In this document: positions 10,282 to 43,995 of the stretch, one piece after another
Layout of the letters: every line of letters starts with the position of its first letter
Numbering within the stretch: position 1 is the first letter of the stretch
Source of the DNA: an uncultured Pseudomonadota bacterium
GTDB lineage: Bacteria > Oederibacteriota > Muellerivitia > Muellerivitales > Muellerivitaceae
Assembly: GCA_963770835.1 (NCBI GenBank)
Contig: CAVYRH010000003.1
Span: 64,001 to 128,000 of the forward strand
Length of the DNA stretch: 64,000 bases
Direction: 5' to 3'
Translations under genes and position numbers: made by a program
The notes under the pieces: generated by a model
Told to the model about the DNA's origin: nothing
The model's input: the letters and a program-made list of their open reading frames with translations, nothing else
The model's database searches: none

Positions 10282-10836
10282 AAACCCTGCCAGCTAACCC
10301 CAGGCTTCAGCCTGGGGGCGAATGGCAGCCCGGAGGGCCGACTGAGTTTGTCGGCCCGAAGGCAAGGAACTGTGGAATGCTCTGGTCATGGGAAAATATT
10401 GGTCAGGCGCACATACCAGACACCGACTGCAATATCACCTCGTTTGGATACCCAAGTATCGGAAACGAGTCTTGCTTGGCAAAGTTGCCGTCCGCCTGCA
10501 AGAGCTGTTTAGAGAGGCGGCCCACGTCAACCGTTGGGTAATCCACGAATTGAATATTCAGCGAGACCACGTGCATATGCTGATCCAGGTTGAGCCAAAG
10601 GTGAGTGTGGCTAAAGTGGTGCAGGTGCTAAAAGGCGGTACAAGCACCAAGATCAGGCGTGAGTACCCTGAACTTGAGGAGTTTCTCTGGGGGGATAGTT
10701 TTTGGGCGGACGGCTACTTTGCGGAAAGTATAGGCACTGTGCAGGAGGAGATGATCCGCAAATATATCCGCGAGCAACAGCATGACCAGAGTATGCCGAA
10801 AGGTAGAAACCCCGGGCTTTAGCCCGGGGAGATTCA
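10282..10836 (+). mobile_element. IS200-type element (tnpA only)
   Basis: Subterminal hairpins CCCCAGGCTTCAGCCTGGGG (~10297-10316) and CCCCGGGCTTTAGCCCGGGG (~10810-10829); ends approximate. Confidence 0.85.
10388..10822 (+). CDS. tnpA: IS200/IS605 Y1 HUH transposase
   Basis: YHLVWIPKYR, DHVHML, FWADGYF, YIREQ motifs. Confidence 0.95.
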   Translation: MGKYWSGAHTRHRLQYHLVWIPKYRKRVLLGKVAVRLQELFREAAHVNRWVIHELNIQRDHVHMLIQVEPKVSVAKVVQVLKGGTSTKIRREYPELEEFLWGDSFWADGYFAESIGTVQEEMIRKYIREQQHDQSMPKGRNPGL

Positions 10837-17892: not shown

Positions 17893-17920
17893 TGTCCACG
17901 ACGGGGACCCATCGTGGACA
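17893..17920 (+). repeat. 28-bp site S3 TGTCCACGACG-GGGACC-CATCGTGGACA
   Basis: Consensus copy; IS110 begins at next base. Confidence 0.95.
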
Positions 17921-17994
17921 GGTAACATGATGGCCATTCCACCGCCGGGATTAAACTATTCCCGGTGAGTAGCCACTCATAAGGAGGAATGACC

Positions 17995-19065
17995 ATGAAA
18001 CAGATTAGCAAAAAAGGATTCCAAGGCAAGGAGGTATCCAAGCGGGACGCCGTGTTTGTGGGGCTCGATGTCCACAAACGAAGTATTTACGTAGCAATCA
18101 GGATCAATGGAAAGGAAACCGGAACCAAGTCTGTGCCCGCGGATTGGGAAGCTGTGGTGAAGGTTCTGGAGCCTTACCGAAAAGGGTTAAAAAAGGTCGT
18201 CTACGAGGCAGGACCTACTGGCTTTGGCTTGGCACGTCGCCTTCGGGAAGTGGGATACCCATTGGACGTCATCGCCCCGAACAAAACACCTCGTGTAGCT
18301 CAGTTGGAAACAAAATCCGACCGGTTGGACTGCCGCAAGCTGGCGGAGTACGCCGAAAAGGATCTCTTGCGGGCTGTGGCGATCCCAACCCTCCAGGAAG
18401 AAGCGGATCGGCAAGTGGTGCGTTTGAGAAACGCGATGGTGGAACAAAAACGCAAGGCCAAACAAAGGATCAAAAGCTTTTTCCTCCAATATGGATTCAA
18501 GGAACCTAGAGGGCTGGATTACTGGACCCACGAGGCCATCGGAGTTTTGCGGGATATGGAACTGCCGCCGGCCCTGAGATTCACGTTGGATAGCCTATTG
18601 GAAGATCTCTTTTACTTTGATAGGCAGCTTAAAGACGTGAACATACGTTTGCGGGTCATGATGAAGGACAAGGCCTACGAGAAAAAGGCTAAGATCCTCA
18701 GGTCCCACCCGGGAGTGGGTGAAGTAACGACCCTGCAAATGTTAACGGAGATTTACCAGCCGGAGCGCTTTCAAAACGCCAAACAGGTGGCGGCTTACGT
18801 GGGGTTGGCCCCAAGGATCAGGCAAAGCGGAGAAACTCGAAAGGAAGGCCATTTGCAGAAGGCCGGAAAAGGAACCTTGAGGGCTACCTTAGTTGAAGCT
18901 GCCTGGTCATGGATTCAAAAGGATACCCAGGCCAACCGCGTTTTCCGCCGGTTCGTCCGTAATACGGGGCATGTCAACAAAGCGATTGTGGCAATGGCTC
19001 ACAAGCTTTTGATTCACCTTTGGACTATGTTGGTTCGAAAGGAAGTTTATCGGCCCATGCTCTAA
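17995..19065 (+). CDS. IS110 DEDD recombinase/transposase
   Basis: VGLDVHK, YEAG, KSDRLD, GLAP..RQSG motifs. Confidence 0.95.
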   Translation: MKQISKKGFQGKEVSKRDAVFVGLDVHKRSIYVAIRINGKETGTKSVPADWEAVVKVLEPYRKGLKKVVYEAGPTGFGLARRLREVGYPLDVIAPNKTPRVAQLETKSDRLDCRKLAEYAEKDLLRAVAIPTLQEEADRQVVRLRNAMVEQKRKAKQRIKSFFLQYGFKEPRGLDYWTHEAIGVLRDMELPPALRFTLDSLLEDLFYFDRQLKDVNIRLRVMMKDKAYEKKAKILRSHPGVGEVTTLQMLTEIYQPERFQNAKQVAAYVGLAPRIRQSGETRKEGHLQKAGKGTLRATLVEAAWSWIQKDTQANRVFRRFVRNTGHVNKAIVAMAHKLLIHLWTMLVRKEVYRPML

Positions 19066-19069
19066 AGAG

Positions 19070-19235
19070 GTTTCAGCCTCAGTTTCGTGATTCGACCCCT
19101 TAGGAATGACCACGAGTTTTAGCTGTGCCTTAGGCACGTTGGACAGGTGGTGGCTTCCCTCAGGATTATCGAATTCTTATCTTGTGCCTCGAGCACGAAT
19201 AGCAGCGTGAATCCACGAAACCAAAAGGCTGACCG
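19070..19235 (+). ncRNA. putative bridge/seek RNA of the IS1111 element
   Basis: Two parallel loops with GTGCC..GCAC hairpins followed by TTGGACAG (target-like) and ATAGCAG (IS-end-like). Confidence 0.65.
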
Positions 19236-19312
19236 TAGGAGAAAATTGGACTTGAGGAATGGCCTCATAGCAGGAATGGCCTCATAGCAGCTATATTTGA
19301 TTGGAAGACTCA

Positions 19313-19931: not shown

Positions 19932-19981
19932 CGAAAGAAGCTCTGGTTTTTTTATCAAATGAATTTGGAAATGGTGTTGAA

Positions 19982-20581
19982 ATGAAAGTTGAAACCGAAA
20001 ATCTTGATGAATATCTTGTGTCGGACGAGGTCATCGACTGGCATCACCCGGACATCCAACGGATGGCTAAGGGACTGGTCGGGAATTGTCCCGATCAACT
20101 ATCCAAAATACGAGTGCTCTTTGAATGGGTGAGGGATGAGATCCCCCATACCAAAGACATTGATGAAAGGGTTGTGACATGCAAAGCGAGTGATGTCCTT
20201 CGGCACAGGACCGGGATGTGTTACGCCAAAAGTCATTTACTTGCCGCTCTATTAAGGGCGAATGGTATTCCCGCAGGATTTTGTTACCAGGTACTCGTTC
20301 GTGACGAGCCTTATACCGGGTTGGTATTGCATGGTTTGAATGGGGTCTATCTTGAGGACGTAAAAAGATGGGTCAGGGTGGATTCCAGGGGGAATGTTGG
20401 GAACATCAACGCCCAGTTCGATCCAAACAAAGAACGACTGGCATTTCAAATGGACCCGGCTTTGGGCGAGTTCATCTATGACACCATTTTTAAGGCACCG
20501 GTTCCTGAGGTGACGGAGACATTAAGAAAGTTCACTGACTTGCAGGAGATGTGGCCGCATTTACCAAAAAAACTGGGATAA
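19982..20581 (+). CDS. cassette: transglutaminase-like protein
   Basis: GMCYAKSHLLAALLRA, LHGLN, WVRVD catalytic triad; stop 2 bp before S5. Confidence 0.9.
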   Translation: MKVETENLDEYLVSDEVIDWHHPDIQRMAKGLVGNCPDQLSKIRVLFEWVRDEIPHTKDIDERVVTCKASDVLRHRTGMCYAKSHLLAALLRANGIPAGFCYQVLVRDEPYTGLVLHGLNGVYLEDVKRWVRVDSRGNVGNINAQFDPNKERLAFQMDPALGEFIYDTIFKAPVPEVTETLRKFTDLQEMWPHLPKKLG

Positions 20582-20583
20582 CC

Positions 20584-20611
20584 TGTCCACGACGGGGCCC
20601 ATCGTGGACAT
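20584..20611 (+). repeat. 28-bp site S5
   Basis: TGTCCACGACG-GGGCCC-CATCGTGGACA. Confidence 0.95.
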
Positions 20612-21410
20612 CGTGCCAGAGGAGGGTTTGCAGAGCCAGCAGGTGAGGGAGTAGGCCGATGAGGGTCAACCCAAGTCCTGACCAGGTAATCACCAGAGAG
20701 CCTGGAAGTCAGCCCCCGGCGTAGGATCGAGAGGTCCTGCCCGAAACGGGGTCATAAACCTCATTTAGTGAGGGAACAATCCAGCAGTCCGCAACATCAA
20801 GTGAATCCTGCCGCTTCGTGAATGGGACACCGAAAGGTGCAAGGGGATGCCGAGCCGCGTGTCTACTGGCGAAGGCCACGATCCCGCTGAAGAATCTGGT
20901 AGCAAGCGGGGCAAGTCCTCCGGAGTATGGGGAACGGAATGTTGGAAAGGCTATGCAAGCAAGCTGGGAGATCCTACCCGCCAAAAGACTTGCCGCTATA
21001 AGGCTAAAACCGAAAAGAGGCAAGGGTGGGAGGAAGTCGGAGGGGGTCACAGTACCGATGAAGGGGTGGACAACAAAACCACCCTGAGGGAAGGACCCCT
21101 GCTTCAACCATGTGTCTCAAAGAAGGTAGGCGCTGGAGCATGCCCCAAAAGGGCCAACAACTCTGTAGTACCAAAGCGCGAGGCCTTTGACAACAGGCAC
21201 TATGCCGAGCGGCCAAGGGGGAAGTCGAACCTGTAAAGCCGCCGGAGGAGAGGTTGTCGGAAAGCCGTATGATCGAAAAGGTCACGTACGGTTTGACGAG
21301 GGGGCGCTGGAAACGAAGTGATGAGGGAACCTCGTTGGGGCACGGAACCGGAAACGGGGAAACAGATCAAGGAACCCTCTGCACACCATCGCGCCAGTGC
21401 TCTACTCTGC
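20612..21410 (+). ncRNA. ORF-less group II intron
   Basis: Domain V AAGCCGTATGATCGAAAAGGTCACGTACGGTTT (~21262-21295); domain VI GCGCTGG..CCAGTGCTCTACTC; EBS1-like loop at 20860-20866; no RT ORF. Confidence 0.8.
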
Positions 21411-21444
21411 AAGAAGAACGTAAATTATCTGGAGGGTTGAAAAT

Positions 21445-22005
21445 ATGGAACATGTTCAAACAAAAACAGAATTGCCTATAACTTATCGGCCATCGATTAT
21501 TTATTCGGTCCCTTTTATTTATTTTTTTATCCGATATGGGTTGCCTAGCTATTTAGGGCTTTTTTCACTTAAAGAACATTTCGTTTTAGCATTTTTTTTA
21601 TTTGTGCTTTTTGGTTTACCCACTACTTTTTTAATGTTTGTGATTTTTAATATAAAAATTAAAGCCGTAGAAGATGGCTTGATATATTCAAAAAAAATAA
21701 AAGTGCCATGGACGGAAATTACAAAAATTACAGCCAAATCCGGTTTATTGCCGAACATAAAGATTTATTACCAAACCATGAAACCTTATGTGCCAAAGGG
21801 GATGACAGGCATTTATTCGACAAAATCGATGGTTAATTTCCTGGAGCTTTTAACTATTAAATCTCCTCAAGCGGAATTTGGAGATGGAATCATAGAGTTC
21901 GAAGAAAAATATAAAACATATATTTCTGAATCTTTACGACAAGCCATCAATAACAAAATGACGAAAAAAGATTCAACTCAATTAGTTCAAGTCGAAAAGG
22001 TTTAG
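21445..22005 (+). CDS. cassette: membrane protein with bPH-like C-terminus
   Basis: Two TMs, then DGLIY..KVPWTEITKI. Confidence 0.7.
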   Translation: MEHVQTKTELPITYRPSIIYSVPFIYFFIRYGLPSYLGLFSLKEHFVLAFFLFVLFGLPTTFLMFVIFNIKIKAVEDGLIYSKKIKVPWTEITKITAKSGLLPNIKIYYQTMKPYVPKGMTGIYSTKSMVNFLELLTIKSPQAEFGDGIIEFEEKYKTYISESLRQAINNKMTKKDSTQLVQVEKV

Positions 22006-22013
22006 AGATGCGT

Positions 22014-23487: not shown

Positions 23488-24753
23488 TGACCGGCCCCCC
23501 AAGTTTGTGCCACCAATTAAGTCACTCCCGGAGTAGGAGTTCCTGAGGTCGTCATGGGCAAGGTGTTGCCTTTGGGCCCCATGACGACCGCCTCCGGGGC
23601 AGGCGGTTTATACCCCAGAGAGCTGTGCGGCCGTTTCGTATTGTACTCCTTCCTCCACCTCTCAGCGAGCACTCGGCCTTCCCACACCGTGTCGAGCAGT
23701 TCGCCGTTCAATAGTTCGTCCCTGAATTTGCCGTTGAAGCTTTCGTTATAGCCGTTCTCCCAAGGGCTTCCCGGTTCGATGAAAAGGGTCTTTACTCCCA
23801 CCTTCGGGAGCCAGTCCTTCACCCTCTCCGCTGTGAATTCAGGCCCATTGTCGGAGCGGATGTGCTCCGGCACTCCCCGTTGGACGAACAAGTCCGTCAG
23901 CACTGCCTGCACGTCGTCCGCCGTAAACTTCCGAGCTACCGGCAGGGCCAGGCATTCACGGGTGAACTCATCGATCAGCGTCAGGAACCGAAGAGGCCGT
24001 CCGTCGCTGGTCCTCTCGGCGACGAAGTCATAGCTCCAAACGTGGTTGGGGTGTTCCGCCCTCAACCTGACACAGGAACCATCCGTAAACCACAACCTCC
24101 TTCGTTTCGGCTGTTTTTTCGGTACTTTCAACCCTTCCTGCTTCCAAATCCTTTCCACCCGCTTCTTGTTGACCCTCCAGCCCTCCTCCTGAAGCATCTT
24201 GGTAATCCGCTTATACCCATACCGCCCGTACTGGCAGGCCAGCCGGAGAATGGCGGTCGTCAGGAGGTCCTCATCGGGCAGGATCTGAGGGATATATCGC
24301 TGGGTGCTCCGGGGTTGGCCGAGGGCCCGGCATACGCGCCGCTGGGAGGCTCGGTGGGTTTCACACGCTTCCCGAACCGCTTTTCGGCGCTTTTCCGGGC
24401 TTAGGAGTTTCCCCGGGCCAAGTCTTTCAGGATGCGGTTATCCAGGGAGAGGTCGGCCACCACCCGCTTGAGCTGGGTATTCTCTTTCTCCAATTCCTTT
24501 AGGCGTTTGGCCTGGTCCAGCTTGAGACCGCCGTATTCTTTTCGCCAGCGGTAGTAGGTATGTGGGGTTATTTGAAGCTCACGGCAGACTTCTTCAACAG
24601 CACGGCCTTTGGACTGCTCAACCTCGGCCTGGCGCAACATGGAAATGATCTGCTCGGCGTTGTGTTTCTTCCTTGGCATAAATGCCCCCTTTTCTTGGCC
24701 CATTATAGAAAAGTATGACTTTTCAACTGGACCAGGTTGAGGGGGGCGGGTCA
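23488..24753 (-). mobile_element. complete IS3-family (IS407-group-like) element, orfA 24401-24679 and orfB to 23517
   Basis: TG..CA ends with imperfect IRs; HTH orfA; WSYDF, SDNGPEF, ESFNG DDE motifs; unrelated flanks, no TSD. Confidence 0.95.
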
Positions 24754-25144
24754 GAGGAACCAAGCCTTTTACAACCACGCAACCGACAGCATTACCCTTC
24801 CTTTTAAAGAGGCTTTTAAATCCACCGAAGGATTTTACGAAACGGTTTGCCATGAGCTCATTCACTGGACGGGAGGCCCGGCCCGGCTCAACCGCATTTC
24901 CAAAGCGGCCTTTGGTTCCGAAGAATACGCCGCCGAGGAGCTTGTGGCCGAGTTTGGGGCTTCGATCCTTTGCGCTCATGTCGGAATCCCTTACAAAACC
25001 AACCACGCCGCTTATATCGCCTCATGGATTAAGAAGTTAAAAGACGATCCGAAGGCCCTTTCCACCGCCATCACCCAAGCCCAAAAGGCCGTTGATTTTC
25101 TTTTGAAACCCGCCGCAGACGAAATAATTAAGGAGGTAGCTTAA
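24754..25144 (+). pseudogene. ardC: ArdC-like antirestriction/ssDNA-binding protein C-terminal zincin domain, 5'-truncated
   Basis: AFY....D.I.LP, HELIHWTG...RLNR, YAAEELVAE.GA, HAAYIASW. Confidence 0.85.
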
Positions 25145-42054: not shown

Positions 42055-43995
42055 GTGCGTCCAGAAAAGGCAGGTGTGTTCAGCAAGAGATAGTCTTGCA
42101 TGGGTAATAGCCAAAGCCCATTAGCTAGGATGGCAGGCAAGCGGGAAACCAAATGCCTGAAGCCCATCAACAAAGCCATCGAAAGGATGGTGAGCGAGTC
42201 GTCGGGCCGTAACGAAAGTAAATGCACAGGTGGCCCCGAAAACACTTGCCTCGGAGGCTGAGTCCGCCGTCGTGGGACGAAAGCATCATGGGACAGCGCG
42301 GAGAAATGGCTGAAGCGCTGGAACACTCCGACGGGGTGATAGCAACGGCACGAAGACAAGGACACGCCAAGCAACTGGAGAAACCCTCCTTGCCCCAGGC
42401 AGAAATGCTTGGAGAAAGGTAGGCCGTATAACCGTGACGCGGGAAAACGGTCGAAGGTGAGAGGGTTTAGGATGGGTTCATGGTAGCGATGAAGCGGGGT
42501 AATGCCCGTGGAGCGAAGGAACCCTGCTGTTGTTAAGTCCCTCGACAAAACGGAAGGCAGTGACGGTATGAAAAAGACGTCAATTAACCTGCAAGACCTG
42601 AGACGAGAGATATACGTCAAAGCGAAGGCTGAAAAGAACTGGAGTTTCTGGGGACTGTACACCCATGTTTGCAAGATGGAAACGCTTCAACAGGCTTACC
42701 GAATGGCTAAGGTAAATAACGGAGCCCCTGGAATAGATGGGGTGACGTTTGATGCCATTGAGGAGGCCGGAGTGGAGTCGTTTCTGGAAAGCATCCGGGG
42801 TGAATTAGTTCAAGGCACGTATAAGCCCGTTCGAAACCGGAAGAAGGAAATACCCAAGGGAAATGGGAAGGTAAGAGTCCTTGGGATACCCAACATTCGG
42901 GATAGAGTAGTCCAGGGAGCACTGAAGTTTATTCTGGAACCGATTTTTGAGGCCGATTTTCAAGAAGGGTCCTATGGGTATCGACCCAAGCGGACCGCTC
43001 ATGCGGCTGTGAACAGGGTAGCATCGGCAATCGTCTGTAGAAAAACCCGAGTCATTGATGTAGACCTCAAGGCATATTTCGACACGGTAAGGCACGACCT
43101 TCTGATGAAGAAAGTTGCCCGAAGGGTTGAGGATGAAACGGTGTTGAGATTGTTGAGGATGATCCTGAAGGCCAGCGGCAAAAGAGGAGTCCCGCAGGGA
43201 GGGGTTATTTCCCCTCTTCTGGCTAATCTCTACCTCAACGAGGTGGATAAGATGCTGGAAAAGGCAAAAGAAGTGACTCGGCAAGGGAAGAACAACTATA
43301 TCGAATATGCGAGGTTCGCTGACGATATGGTGATCCTTGTTAATGGATATCCGCAATGGGAATGGTTGGCAAAGGCTGCCTACCGAAGGTTACTTGAAGA
43401 ATTGACCAAGCTCGACTTGCAAATCAACACGGACAAGACGCGGATAGCAGACTTAACGAAAGGTGAAAGTTTCGGGTTTCTGGGGTTTGACTTTCGACAG
43501 GTGAAAACCCGTCGAGGGAAATGGGGGGTGAAGTTCACGCCGAAAATGAAGGCGCGAGCAACACTTCTGGGTAAGCTCAAGGAAACATTTGGAAGCTTCC
43601 AATCTCAGCCGGTGCAGAGGGTGATTGAGATTATCAATCCCAAACTGCGTGGGTGGGTGAATTACTTTCGGATAGGGAATTCTAGGCGCTGTTTTAACTA
43701 CGTGGAAAGATGGGTCGAGAATAAAATCAGACGGCATATGATGCGTGCGAAGAAGCTCGACGGTTTTGGGCGGGATAGGTGGAGTAGGGAGTGGATATAT
43801 AAGTATCTGGGGTTGTACAGAAGCTACCAAATACGATATTACCAAGAACCGAAAGCGCTACCCGTCTGATAGGTCACATAAACTTTGACAGGAAAGCAAC
43901 AGGTGAGCGTAGTGCGGGAAATCCGCACGCTACGTTCGAGGAGGCGGGGACTGGAAACGGAGCCAGAAGGCCACCGCACCAGTCCTCGACCCTAC
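42055..43995 (+). mobile_element. group II intron with RT/maturase
   Basis: 5' GTGCG, 3' CCCTAC, domain V GAGCGTAGTGCGGGAAATCCGCACGCTACGTTC (~43905-43937). Confidence 0.95.
42568..43869 (+). CDS. ltrA: group II intron reverse transcriptase/maturase without endonuclease domain
   Basis: APGIDG, R.LGIP..RDRVVQ, GVPQGGVISPLLAN.YL, RFADD, LRGWVNYF. Confidence 0.95.
   Translation: MKKTSINLQDLRREIYVKAKAEKNWSFWGLYTHVCKMETLQQAYRMAKVNNGAPGIDGVTFDAIEEAGVESFLESIRGELVQGTYKPVRNRKKEIPKGNGKVRVLGIPNIRDRVVQGALKFILEPIFEADFQEGSYGYRPKRTAHAAVNRVASAIVCRKTRVIDVDLKAYFDTVRHDLLMKKVARRVEDETVLRLLRMILKASGKRGVPQGGVISPLLANLYLNEVDKMLEKAKEVTRQGKNNYIEYARFADDMVILVNGYPQWEWLAKAAYRRLLEELTKLDLQINTDKTRIADLTKGESFGFLGFDFRQVKTRRGKWGVKFTPKMKARATLLGKLKETFGSFQSQPVQRVIEIINPKLRGWVNYFRIGNSRRCFNYVERWVENKIRRHMMRAKKLDGFGRDRWSREWIYKYLGLYRSYQIRYYQEPKALPV

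Follow-up and report, generated by a model that had tools for sequence, protein, structure and literature searches.

An ORF-less group II intron with U1 and G(-2) termini behind a repeated palindrome, probably copied in trans by the reverse transcriptases of related introns

What is the non-coding stretch of about 800 nt that begins immediately behind one copy of a repeated palindrome, how does it come to sit at such a site without breaking it, and which enzyme could have copied it? These questions were taken up for a window of 64,000 nucleotides, the window being the whole stretch of DNA that was analysed (G000:C3:64001-128000, where G000 is the genome of this stretch). The initial annotation had described an ~800-nt non-coding element with domains V and VI and had read it as a group II intron, and searches with group II intron models bore this out, as both Rfam models passed their gathering scores: RF02003 (group II D1-D4) matched 20667-20799 with 57.8 bits against a gathering score of 49, and RF00029 (domains V and VI) matched 21260-21410 with 41.0 bits against 40. 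The element is thus an ORF-less group II intron of 800 nt on the plus strand, 20611-21410, reading 5'-UCGUG ... CUCUGC-3', and it does begin, as had been annotated, right behind the 27-nt palindrome copy at 20584-20610. There is no RT ORF inside it, and the longest of its internal ORFs, of 132 aa on the minus strand, had no Pfam match in a scan that covered ORFs longer than 129 aa. A chance origin of the element is excluded, because 14 copies in the genome have identical ends. Its parts and its immediate surroundings, in window coordinates, are as follows.

20584-20610, plus strand: palindrome copy, a 27-nt copy of the 28-nt palindrome (TGTCCACGACGGGG[A]CCCATCGTGGACA), whole in the 5' exon.
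20598-20602, plus strand: predicted IBS2, CCCAT (-13 to -9), pairing with EBS2 AUGGG; the variants AAGGG/CCCUU and ACACC/GGUGU covary with their targets.
20604-20610, plus strand: IBS1, GTGGACA (-7 to -1), which covaries with EBS1.
20611-21410, plus strand: ORF-less group II intron, 800 nt, placed by Rfam, copy comparison and GH43 orthologues.
20667-20799, plus strand: part of domain I matched by RF02003 (57.8 bits, gathering score 49).
20822-20826, plus strand: predicted EBS2, AUGGG, from its pairing with IBS2.
20860-20866, plus strand: EBS1 loop, UGUCUAC, from its pairing with IBS1.
21140-21185, plus strand: domain IV remnant, with the ATG (21140) that was once the RT start and about 13 codon equivalents, which are frameshifted.
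21260-21296, plus strand: domain V (AGC triad), identical in nine of 11 aligned relatives, the other two having a 2-nt gap in the 3' strand.
21299-21410, plus strand: long domain VI, whose bulged A at 21404 is the seventh base from the 3' end, from RF00029 and the alignment.
21411, plus strand: first base of the 3' exon (+1), an A and likely IBS3; 17 of the 18 family 3' junctions of this genome have A here.

A secondary-structure model, which the initial annotation had proposed as a check, was built for the 5' 552 nt (domains I-III and the 5' strand of domain IV) from 12 distinct sequences of the family. It holds 148 consensus pairs, whose cells are paired in 98.8% of cases against 91.4% in shuffles (none of 500 shuffles was as high), and 39 of these pairs have changed on both sides, where shuffles give 25.7 and controls with slid partners 4-7. 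The fold of this 5' part is therefore maintained by compensatory changes. At the other end of the molecule, domain VI is a long stem with its bulged A at -7, and domain V is the same in most of the relatives aligned.

The 14 copies of the ORF-less intron in the genome are 98-100% identical, lie in flanks that are all different, and all carry the same ORF deletion. Ten are complete, uninterrupted and 100% identical over 800 nt, two are complete but interrupted by an insertion sequence (IS), and two run off contig ends, one of these also being IS-interrupted. A search for an intron-free allele of the window's copy found neither flank (19940-20610, 21411-22012) in the 30 other genomes of the bacterial family. 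In sequencing runs of DNA, contigs with intron pieces end at 20609 and at 21411/21412, and no contig joining across the intron was found in seven sequencing runs, in which the flanks are hardly covered. Intron-internal pieces were recovered from three metatranscriptome runs of three studies, where DNA carry-over is possible, and one metatranscriptome contig of 775 nt (depth 27.8, 27 differences) spans the ORF-deletion junction.

The same genome contains six RT-encoding relatives, three with a 444-aa ORF, one with 469 aa and two with 476 aa, whose 5' 550 nt are 92-93%, 79% and 73% identical to the element, respectively. In a Pfam scan of the 444-aa and the 469-aa ORFs, both score RVT_1 and GIIM, without an endonuclease domain (HNH); the 476-aa ORF reads as a close homologue. 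Among the solved structures compared, which cover only IIA, IIB(CL) and IIC RTs, the nearest to the family RT is the GsI-IIC RT (1.6e-68). What the element itself retains of the ORF is the RT start codon (21140) and, with a frameshift, about 13 codon equivalents; the rest is gone. The initial annotation had raised the possibility of a decayed remnant from which the RT had been deleted: an RT-deleted derivative it is, as the start codon and the codon equivalents show, but a decayed one it is not.

Its history can be followed beyond this genome. Of 31 genomes from the bacterial family, 11 contained the intron family when searched with the 800-nt query (E <= 1e-10), and of 99 from the phylum, nine did with the 552-nt query (E <= 1e-20). 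One and the same domain IV break point is seen in the ORF-less elements of G000, G043 (798 nt), G010 (782 nt), G020 (783 nt) and G002 (773 nt). Their 3' modules, each consisting of the domain IV remnant with domains V and VI, are 83-95% alike in four of these five genomes, the window's type (designated B) being 95% like that of G010, 93% like that of G020 and 87% like that of G043; the ORF-less element of G002 has a different 3' module, 73% to B and 75-77% to the RT-bearing ones. Compared with any RT-bearing relative, the window's element reaches only 66-76% likeness in its 3' module, and its 5' module groups with the 444-aa introns and with the ORF-less copy of G043 (98%). Because ORF-less relatives with the same deletion exist in four other genomes, an old, separate non-autonomous lineage that would have recombined with RT-bearing partners is supported, with the caveat that the 3' module of G002 differs, and this agrees with the independent, non-autonomous lineage that had been proposed at the outset. 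In a separate observation, the 204-nt 3' module of an RT-bearing intron of G043 (L070) proved identical in sequence to the one carried by the copy at C3:39444 of G000 (L027:1466-1669), and since G043 belongs to a different genus, this suggests a recent exchange between genera.

How, then, were the copies made? The RNA gene at 20611-21410 is probably copied to new sites in trans by the RTs of related introns. Mobilisation in trans had been offered as a possibility in the initial annotation, and it is favoured by the 14 copies of 98-100% identity at different sites, by their good EBS/IBS pairing and by the intact RTs in related introns of this genome. An alternative that we regard as unlikely holds that the copies are left over from a past burst, and that the element is now immobile or non-splicing, stranded by the breakage of its cognate RT genes. 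This draws on the finding that all three of the closest RT-bearing relatives are IS-interrupted near the RT start, and that three of the 14 ORF-less copies (C11, C26, C20) carry the same IS, with the C24 copy reaching a contig end before the site. The IS in question is an IS110-family element of 1523 bp with a 387-aa transposase on the strand opposite to the intron. Its six copies (G000:C11:94464-95986, C26:878564-880086, C26:617281-618803, C3:39991-41513, C2:198592-200114 and C20:1-1522) are 100% identical and all lie at the same domain IV position, between ...CCAACAACT and C..., at about codon 8 of the RT gene, which corresponds to a point after the equivalent of window position 21162; no copy was found in the genome outside this intron family. 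The three RT-bearing copies whose domain IVa is most like that of the element are all interrupted there, and because all three of these closest relatives carry the IS in the RT gene, the RT of the likely cognate driver may be inactive now, the intact RTs belonging to more distant relatives (73-79% over the 5' RNA part). However, ten copies are 100% identical over 800 nt, so any such burst must have been very recent, three intact family RT genes remain (one of them scanned against Pfam), and one copy lies in sense in a GH43 gene with the frame open on both sides. Copying in trans by related RTs is accordingly kept as the preferred reading. Two longer, otherwise 100%-identical copies (C11:93912-96235 and C26:878013-880335) were also considered as RT-bearing parents and were rejected, as their extra 1523 bp is the IS110-family element.

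Another part of the question concerns the recognition of the site. The initial annotation had paired the loop at 20860-20866 with the exon end GTGGACA, allowing for one G-U, and this pairing stands: EBS1 TGTCTAC faces 20604-20610 over seven positions, and the loop changes together with the target across 26 distinct family insertions, 24 of which have seven of seven pairs and two of which have six of seven. The EBS1 variants track their targets, as in UGUCCAA/UUGGACA, UGUCUAU/AUGGGCA and UGUCUUA/UAUGACA. Beyond what had been annotated, a pairing of EBS2 AUGGG (20822-20826) with CCCAU (20598-20602, positions -13 to -9) is predicted. This second pairing is perfect in ten of the 18 insertions that have a B-type 5' module, has one G-U in five and one mismatch in three, and four EBS2 variants each fit their own target, with AAGGG, ACACC and ACGGA found at CCCUU, GGUGU and CCCGU; the same register gave no EBS2 pairing in the eight insertions with another 5' module.

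Read from these pairings, the predicted target is the right half of the palindrome together with the A at +1, and the left arm is not needed. A target of this kind would explain why the site is left whole, the entire palindrome staying in the 5' exon, just as the initial annotation had it when it spoke of insertion without breaking the site. It would likewise explain why two copies occupy non-palindromic look-alike sites matching EBS1/EBS2, and why others lie behind four half-sites that have the left arm 1.9 kb away, on the far side of another, loop-inserting intron. With two non-palindromic sites and four half-sites occupied, there is no sign of a requirement for an upstream hairpin. The mode of recognition appears IIB-like and not IIC, in that a 7-nt EBS1 and a covarying 5-nt EBS2 were found in place of the short EBS1 without EBS2 that is a trait of IIC. 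The same evidence bears on a further explanation, that the copies spread as DNA in gene cassettes by recombination at the palindromes and not by retrohoming. Nearly all copies do adjoin a palindrome, but the downstream sequence differs from the second base past the 3' end in every copy, two copies sit in non-palindromic sites that match EBS1/EBS2, and the EBS variants covary with their targets, which makes such a spread very improbable.

The palindrome (with up to three mismatches) occurs at seven further places in the window, as against none expected by chance, and it is used by more than this one intron. The RT-bearing intron at 42055-43995 (GTGCG...CCCTAC, with a 455-aa RVT_1+GIIM ORF and 12 genome copies) sits in the palindrome loop (TGTCCACGACG, intron, GGGACC.GTCGTGGACA). 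That the element differs from it in sequence, as had been claimed, was seen in a genome search with that intron, which gave no nucleotide match to the element. At four places the ORF-less intron directly follows the loop-inserting one, behind the right half-site. Other intron lineages (L077 and L084 of G014:C4, and L068 of G014:C7) end ...TTTACTCTAC right before tcgtggaca, their 3' ends thus lying inside the palindrome, ahead of its right arm, and at L068 the 5' end of another intron comes immediately behind one of the loop-inserting type.

Several further observations were made around these palindromes. All G000 copies that abut a palindrome or a half-site are in forward orientation, and RT-bearing relatives in G043 (L070, L079) are also found behind palindromes in reverse orientation (loop GGGTCCCC). 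At G000:C12:25930-25957, C15:2910-2937, C25:29803-29830 and C3:411995-412022 the palindrome is followed by an identical run of 14 letters (GCTTGGATGTCGAC), which may represent another element or a repeated cassette that uses the same edge. The letters GGTAACA follow the palindrome three times in a both-strand tally of the genome, and are the same as those behind the palindrome at 17893-17920 of the window; right behind that palindrome, in 17893-19300, lies an IS110-family transposase gene (17989-19062, DEDD_Tnp_IS110 and Transposase_20). The window also contains an IS200-like Y1 transposase gene of 144 aa (10388-10819) and, on the minus strand, an IS3-type pair (23520-25006, HTH_Tnp_1 and rve).

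It remained to fix the ends of the intron to the base. All 14 copies start with TCGTGCC right behind ...GTGGACA or a close variant of it, and their 3' ends read ...CTCTACTCTGC and then A, with flanks diverging from the next base on; by itself, this comparison leaves it ambiguous whether the A at 21411 is intron or exon. The ambiguity is removed by the copy at G000:C4:389639-390439, which lies in sense inside the GH43 gene and divides it. Orthologues of the gene that are uninterrupted have GGGAAGGACC and GGCAAGGACC (Gly-Lys-Asp) in G021 and G014 and GGGAAGAGCC (Gly-Lys-Ser) in G001, and the G000 junction (GGGCA, element, AGGACC) has a sole parse that restores both the frame and the Lys codon. 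Because only the TCGTG...CTCTGC parse restores the GH43 frame, the intron is 20611-21410 with the A at +1 (21411), and the termini TCGTG... and ...CTCTGC are exactly those that the initial annotation had named. A 3' end behind the A at 21411, which copy comparison alone would have allowed, is ruled out by the orthologous junction. The genome has 61 well-oriented palindromes, of which 10 are occupied by this intron family and 51 are unoccupied. A 5' splice site placed two bases further downstream, with UC being exon or a 2-nt leader, is hardly credible: GUGCC does look like GUGYG, but the orthologous GH43 junction lacks the TC, none of the 51 unoccupied oriented palindromes has TC next to it, and relatives start GUGUG, GCGUG or GCGCG at the same aligned position, so that this reading is already contradicted at the DNA level.

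The ends thus depart from the GUGYG and AY rule, with UCGUG at the 5' end and GC at the 3' end, where those relatives have AC at the 3' end. Since the relatives start as they do at the aligned position, a U1/C2 variant of GUGYG is a better reading of the 5' start than a displaced splice site; the description of the ends as non-canonical holds for the termini as they had been stated, with this refinement of how the first of them is to be read. U1 occurs together with G(-2) in eight distinct elements and G1 with A(-2) in six, with no exception among the 14, although these 14 come down to no more than about three independent switches. In trees from which these positions were left out, the terminal state changes at least five times (5' module) or three times (3' module), and the three independent pairs on well-supported branches all agree, a number that cannot reach significance (sign test, p 0.25). 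According to published accounts, the intron's first nucleotide and its penultimate one are in contact ahead of the second step of splicing (PMC4238363, PMC3669008), and a penultimate G impaired that step in RmInt1 (PMC4238363). No natural U1/G(-2) pair came up in a limited literature search.

Taken together, a plausible course of events can be outlined. The intron would be transcribed in the sense direction with its flanking genes and then spliced out; the excised RNA, bound by the RT of a related intron, would reverse-splice into CCCAU-N-GUGGACA followed by A, which are IBS2, IBS1 and +1 and make up the right half of the palindrome; and the inserted intron would be copied to DNA, presumably with priming at the replication fork because the family RTs lack an endonuclease domain. 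U1 is likely to be accommodated by the matching penultimate G, which would stand in for the G1/A contact that is usual at the second splicing step. A wider picture may be put forward tentatively, as one that could well be true but that we would not yet call likely. It is of an enzyme-less lineage lasting across genera of an uncultured soil phylum, which has its own 3' catalytic module and has exchanged 5' targeting modules with partners that encode an RT, homes to palindromes at the junctions of gene-cassette-like arrays, carries a natural U1/G(-2) in place of the near-universal G1/A(-2), compensatory for the second splicing step, and serves as the sole landing site in the genome for an IS110-family element.

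To our knowledge, the sole well-studied case of proliferation of ORF-less introns is that in a thermophilic cyanobacterium. The present element offers a second natural system, with a 13-nt target readable from covariation, and its matched break of the GUGYG...AY rule makes the contact of the first and penultimate nucleotides testable by simple swap mutants. The layered parasitism, in which a palindrome is followed by an intron and the intron by an IS, is traceable in metagenomes. It also bears on the upkeep of palindrome-bounded arrays in the phylum, in that the palindrome survives the insertion of the ORF-less intron undivided, whereas it is cut in two by the RT-bearing intron at 42055-43995.

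Among known introns, several classes share traits with the element. No class mapping for RF02003 was found in the literature. The two relatives' ORFs that were scanned have RT and X/maturase domains only, a trait of the endonuclease-less IIB-like classes D, E and F, and the nearest solved RT to that of the family, the GsI-IIC RT, is a likeness to IIC. IIC-attC introns lie antisense. As described for IIC and IIC-attC introns (PMC4424553, PMC3753933), these share with the element an insertion beside an intergenic DNA hairpin and an endonuclease-less RT; IIC introns are characterised as having no EBS2 and as lacking part of EBS1 (PMC3753933), whereas the element has a 7-nt EBS1 and a 5-nt EBS2, has no need of the left arm and lies in sense to the flanking genes. 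The IIE and IIF introns, compared here by their description in PMC3753933, resemble it in having EBS1 and EBS2 in domain I and an endonuclease-less RT; their ribozymes are small, given there as 450-700 nt without the IEP, and that of the element's family comes to an estimated ~600-700 nt (element minus ORF length). The IIB introns reported at integron attC sites and CALINs (Sonbol and Siam 2021, PMC7923331) share with the element the IIB type and a place at the junctions of gene-cassette arrays, but in that account they lie at integron attC sites and are RT-bearing or truncated, while the element lies at a 28-nt non-attC palindrome and is intact, ORF-less and present in 14 copies. RmInt1 of Sinorhizobium meliloti (PMC4238363) is likewise an endonuclease-less, IIB-type intron with a non-consensus 3' end, CC in its case, which is discussed in that source through the contact of the first and penultimate nucleotides. 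The account consulted mentions no compensating change for RmInt1; in the element both partners have changed (U1, and G at -2), and they switch together.

The closest precedent, to judge from its description in PMC2882425, is that of the TeI3/TeI4 introns of Thermosynechococcus elongatus, where mobilisation of TeI3 in trans was established by assay, while for the present element it is inferred. As portrayed there, TeI3 and the element are alike in having one ancestral ORF deletion in all copies, with remnants of the ORF ends and a frameshifting extra base, in being represented by more ORF-less than ORF-bearing copies, and in occupying sites with good EBS/IBS pairing. They are also alike in having RT-encoding relatives in the same genome, one of them with an IS in its ORF, and in forming tandem or nested introns. 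By the same account, the element is unlike TeI3 in that the RTs of its family lack the endonuclease domain, its target is a repeated palindrome and its termini are U1...G(-2), and further in that its ORF-less lineage is found in several genera, with 5' and 3' modules that appear to differ in their history.
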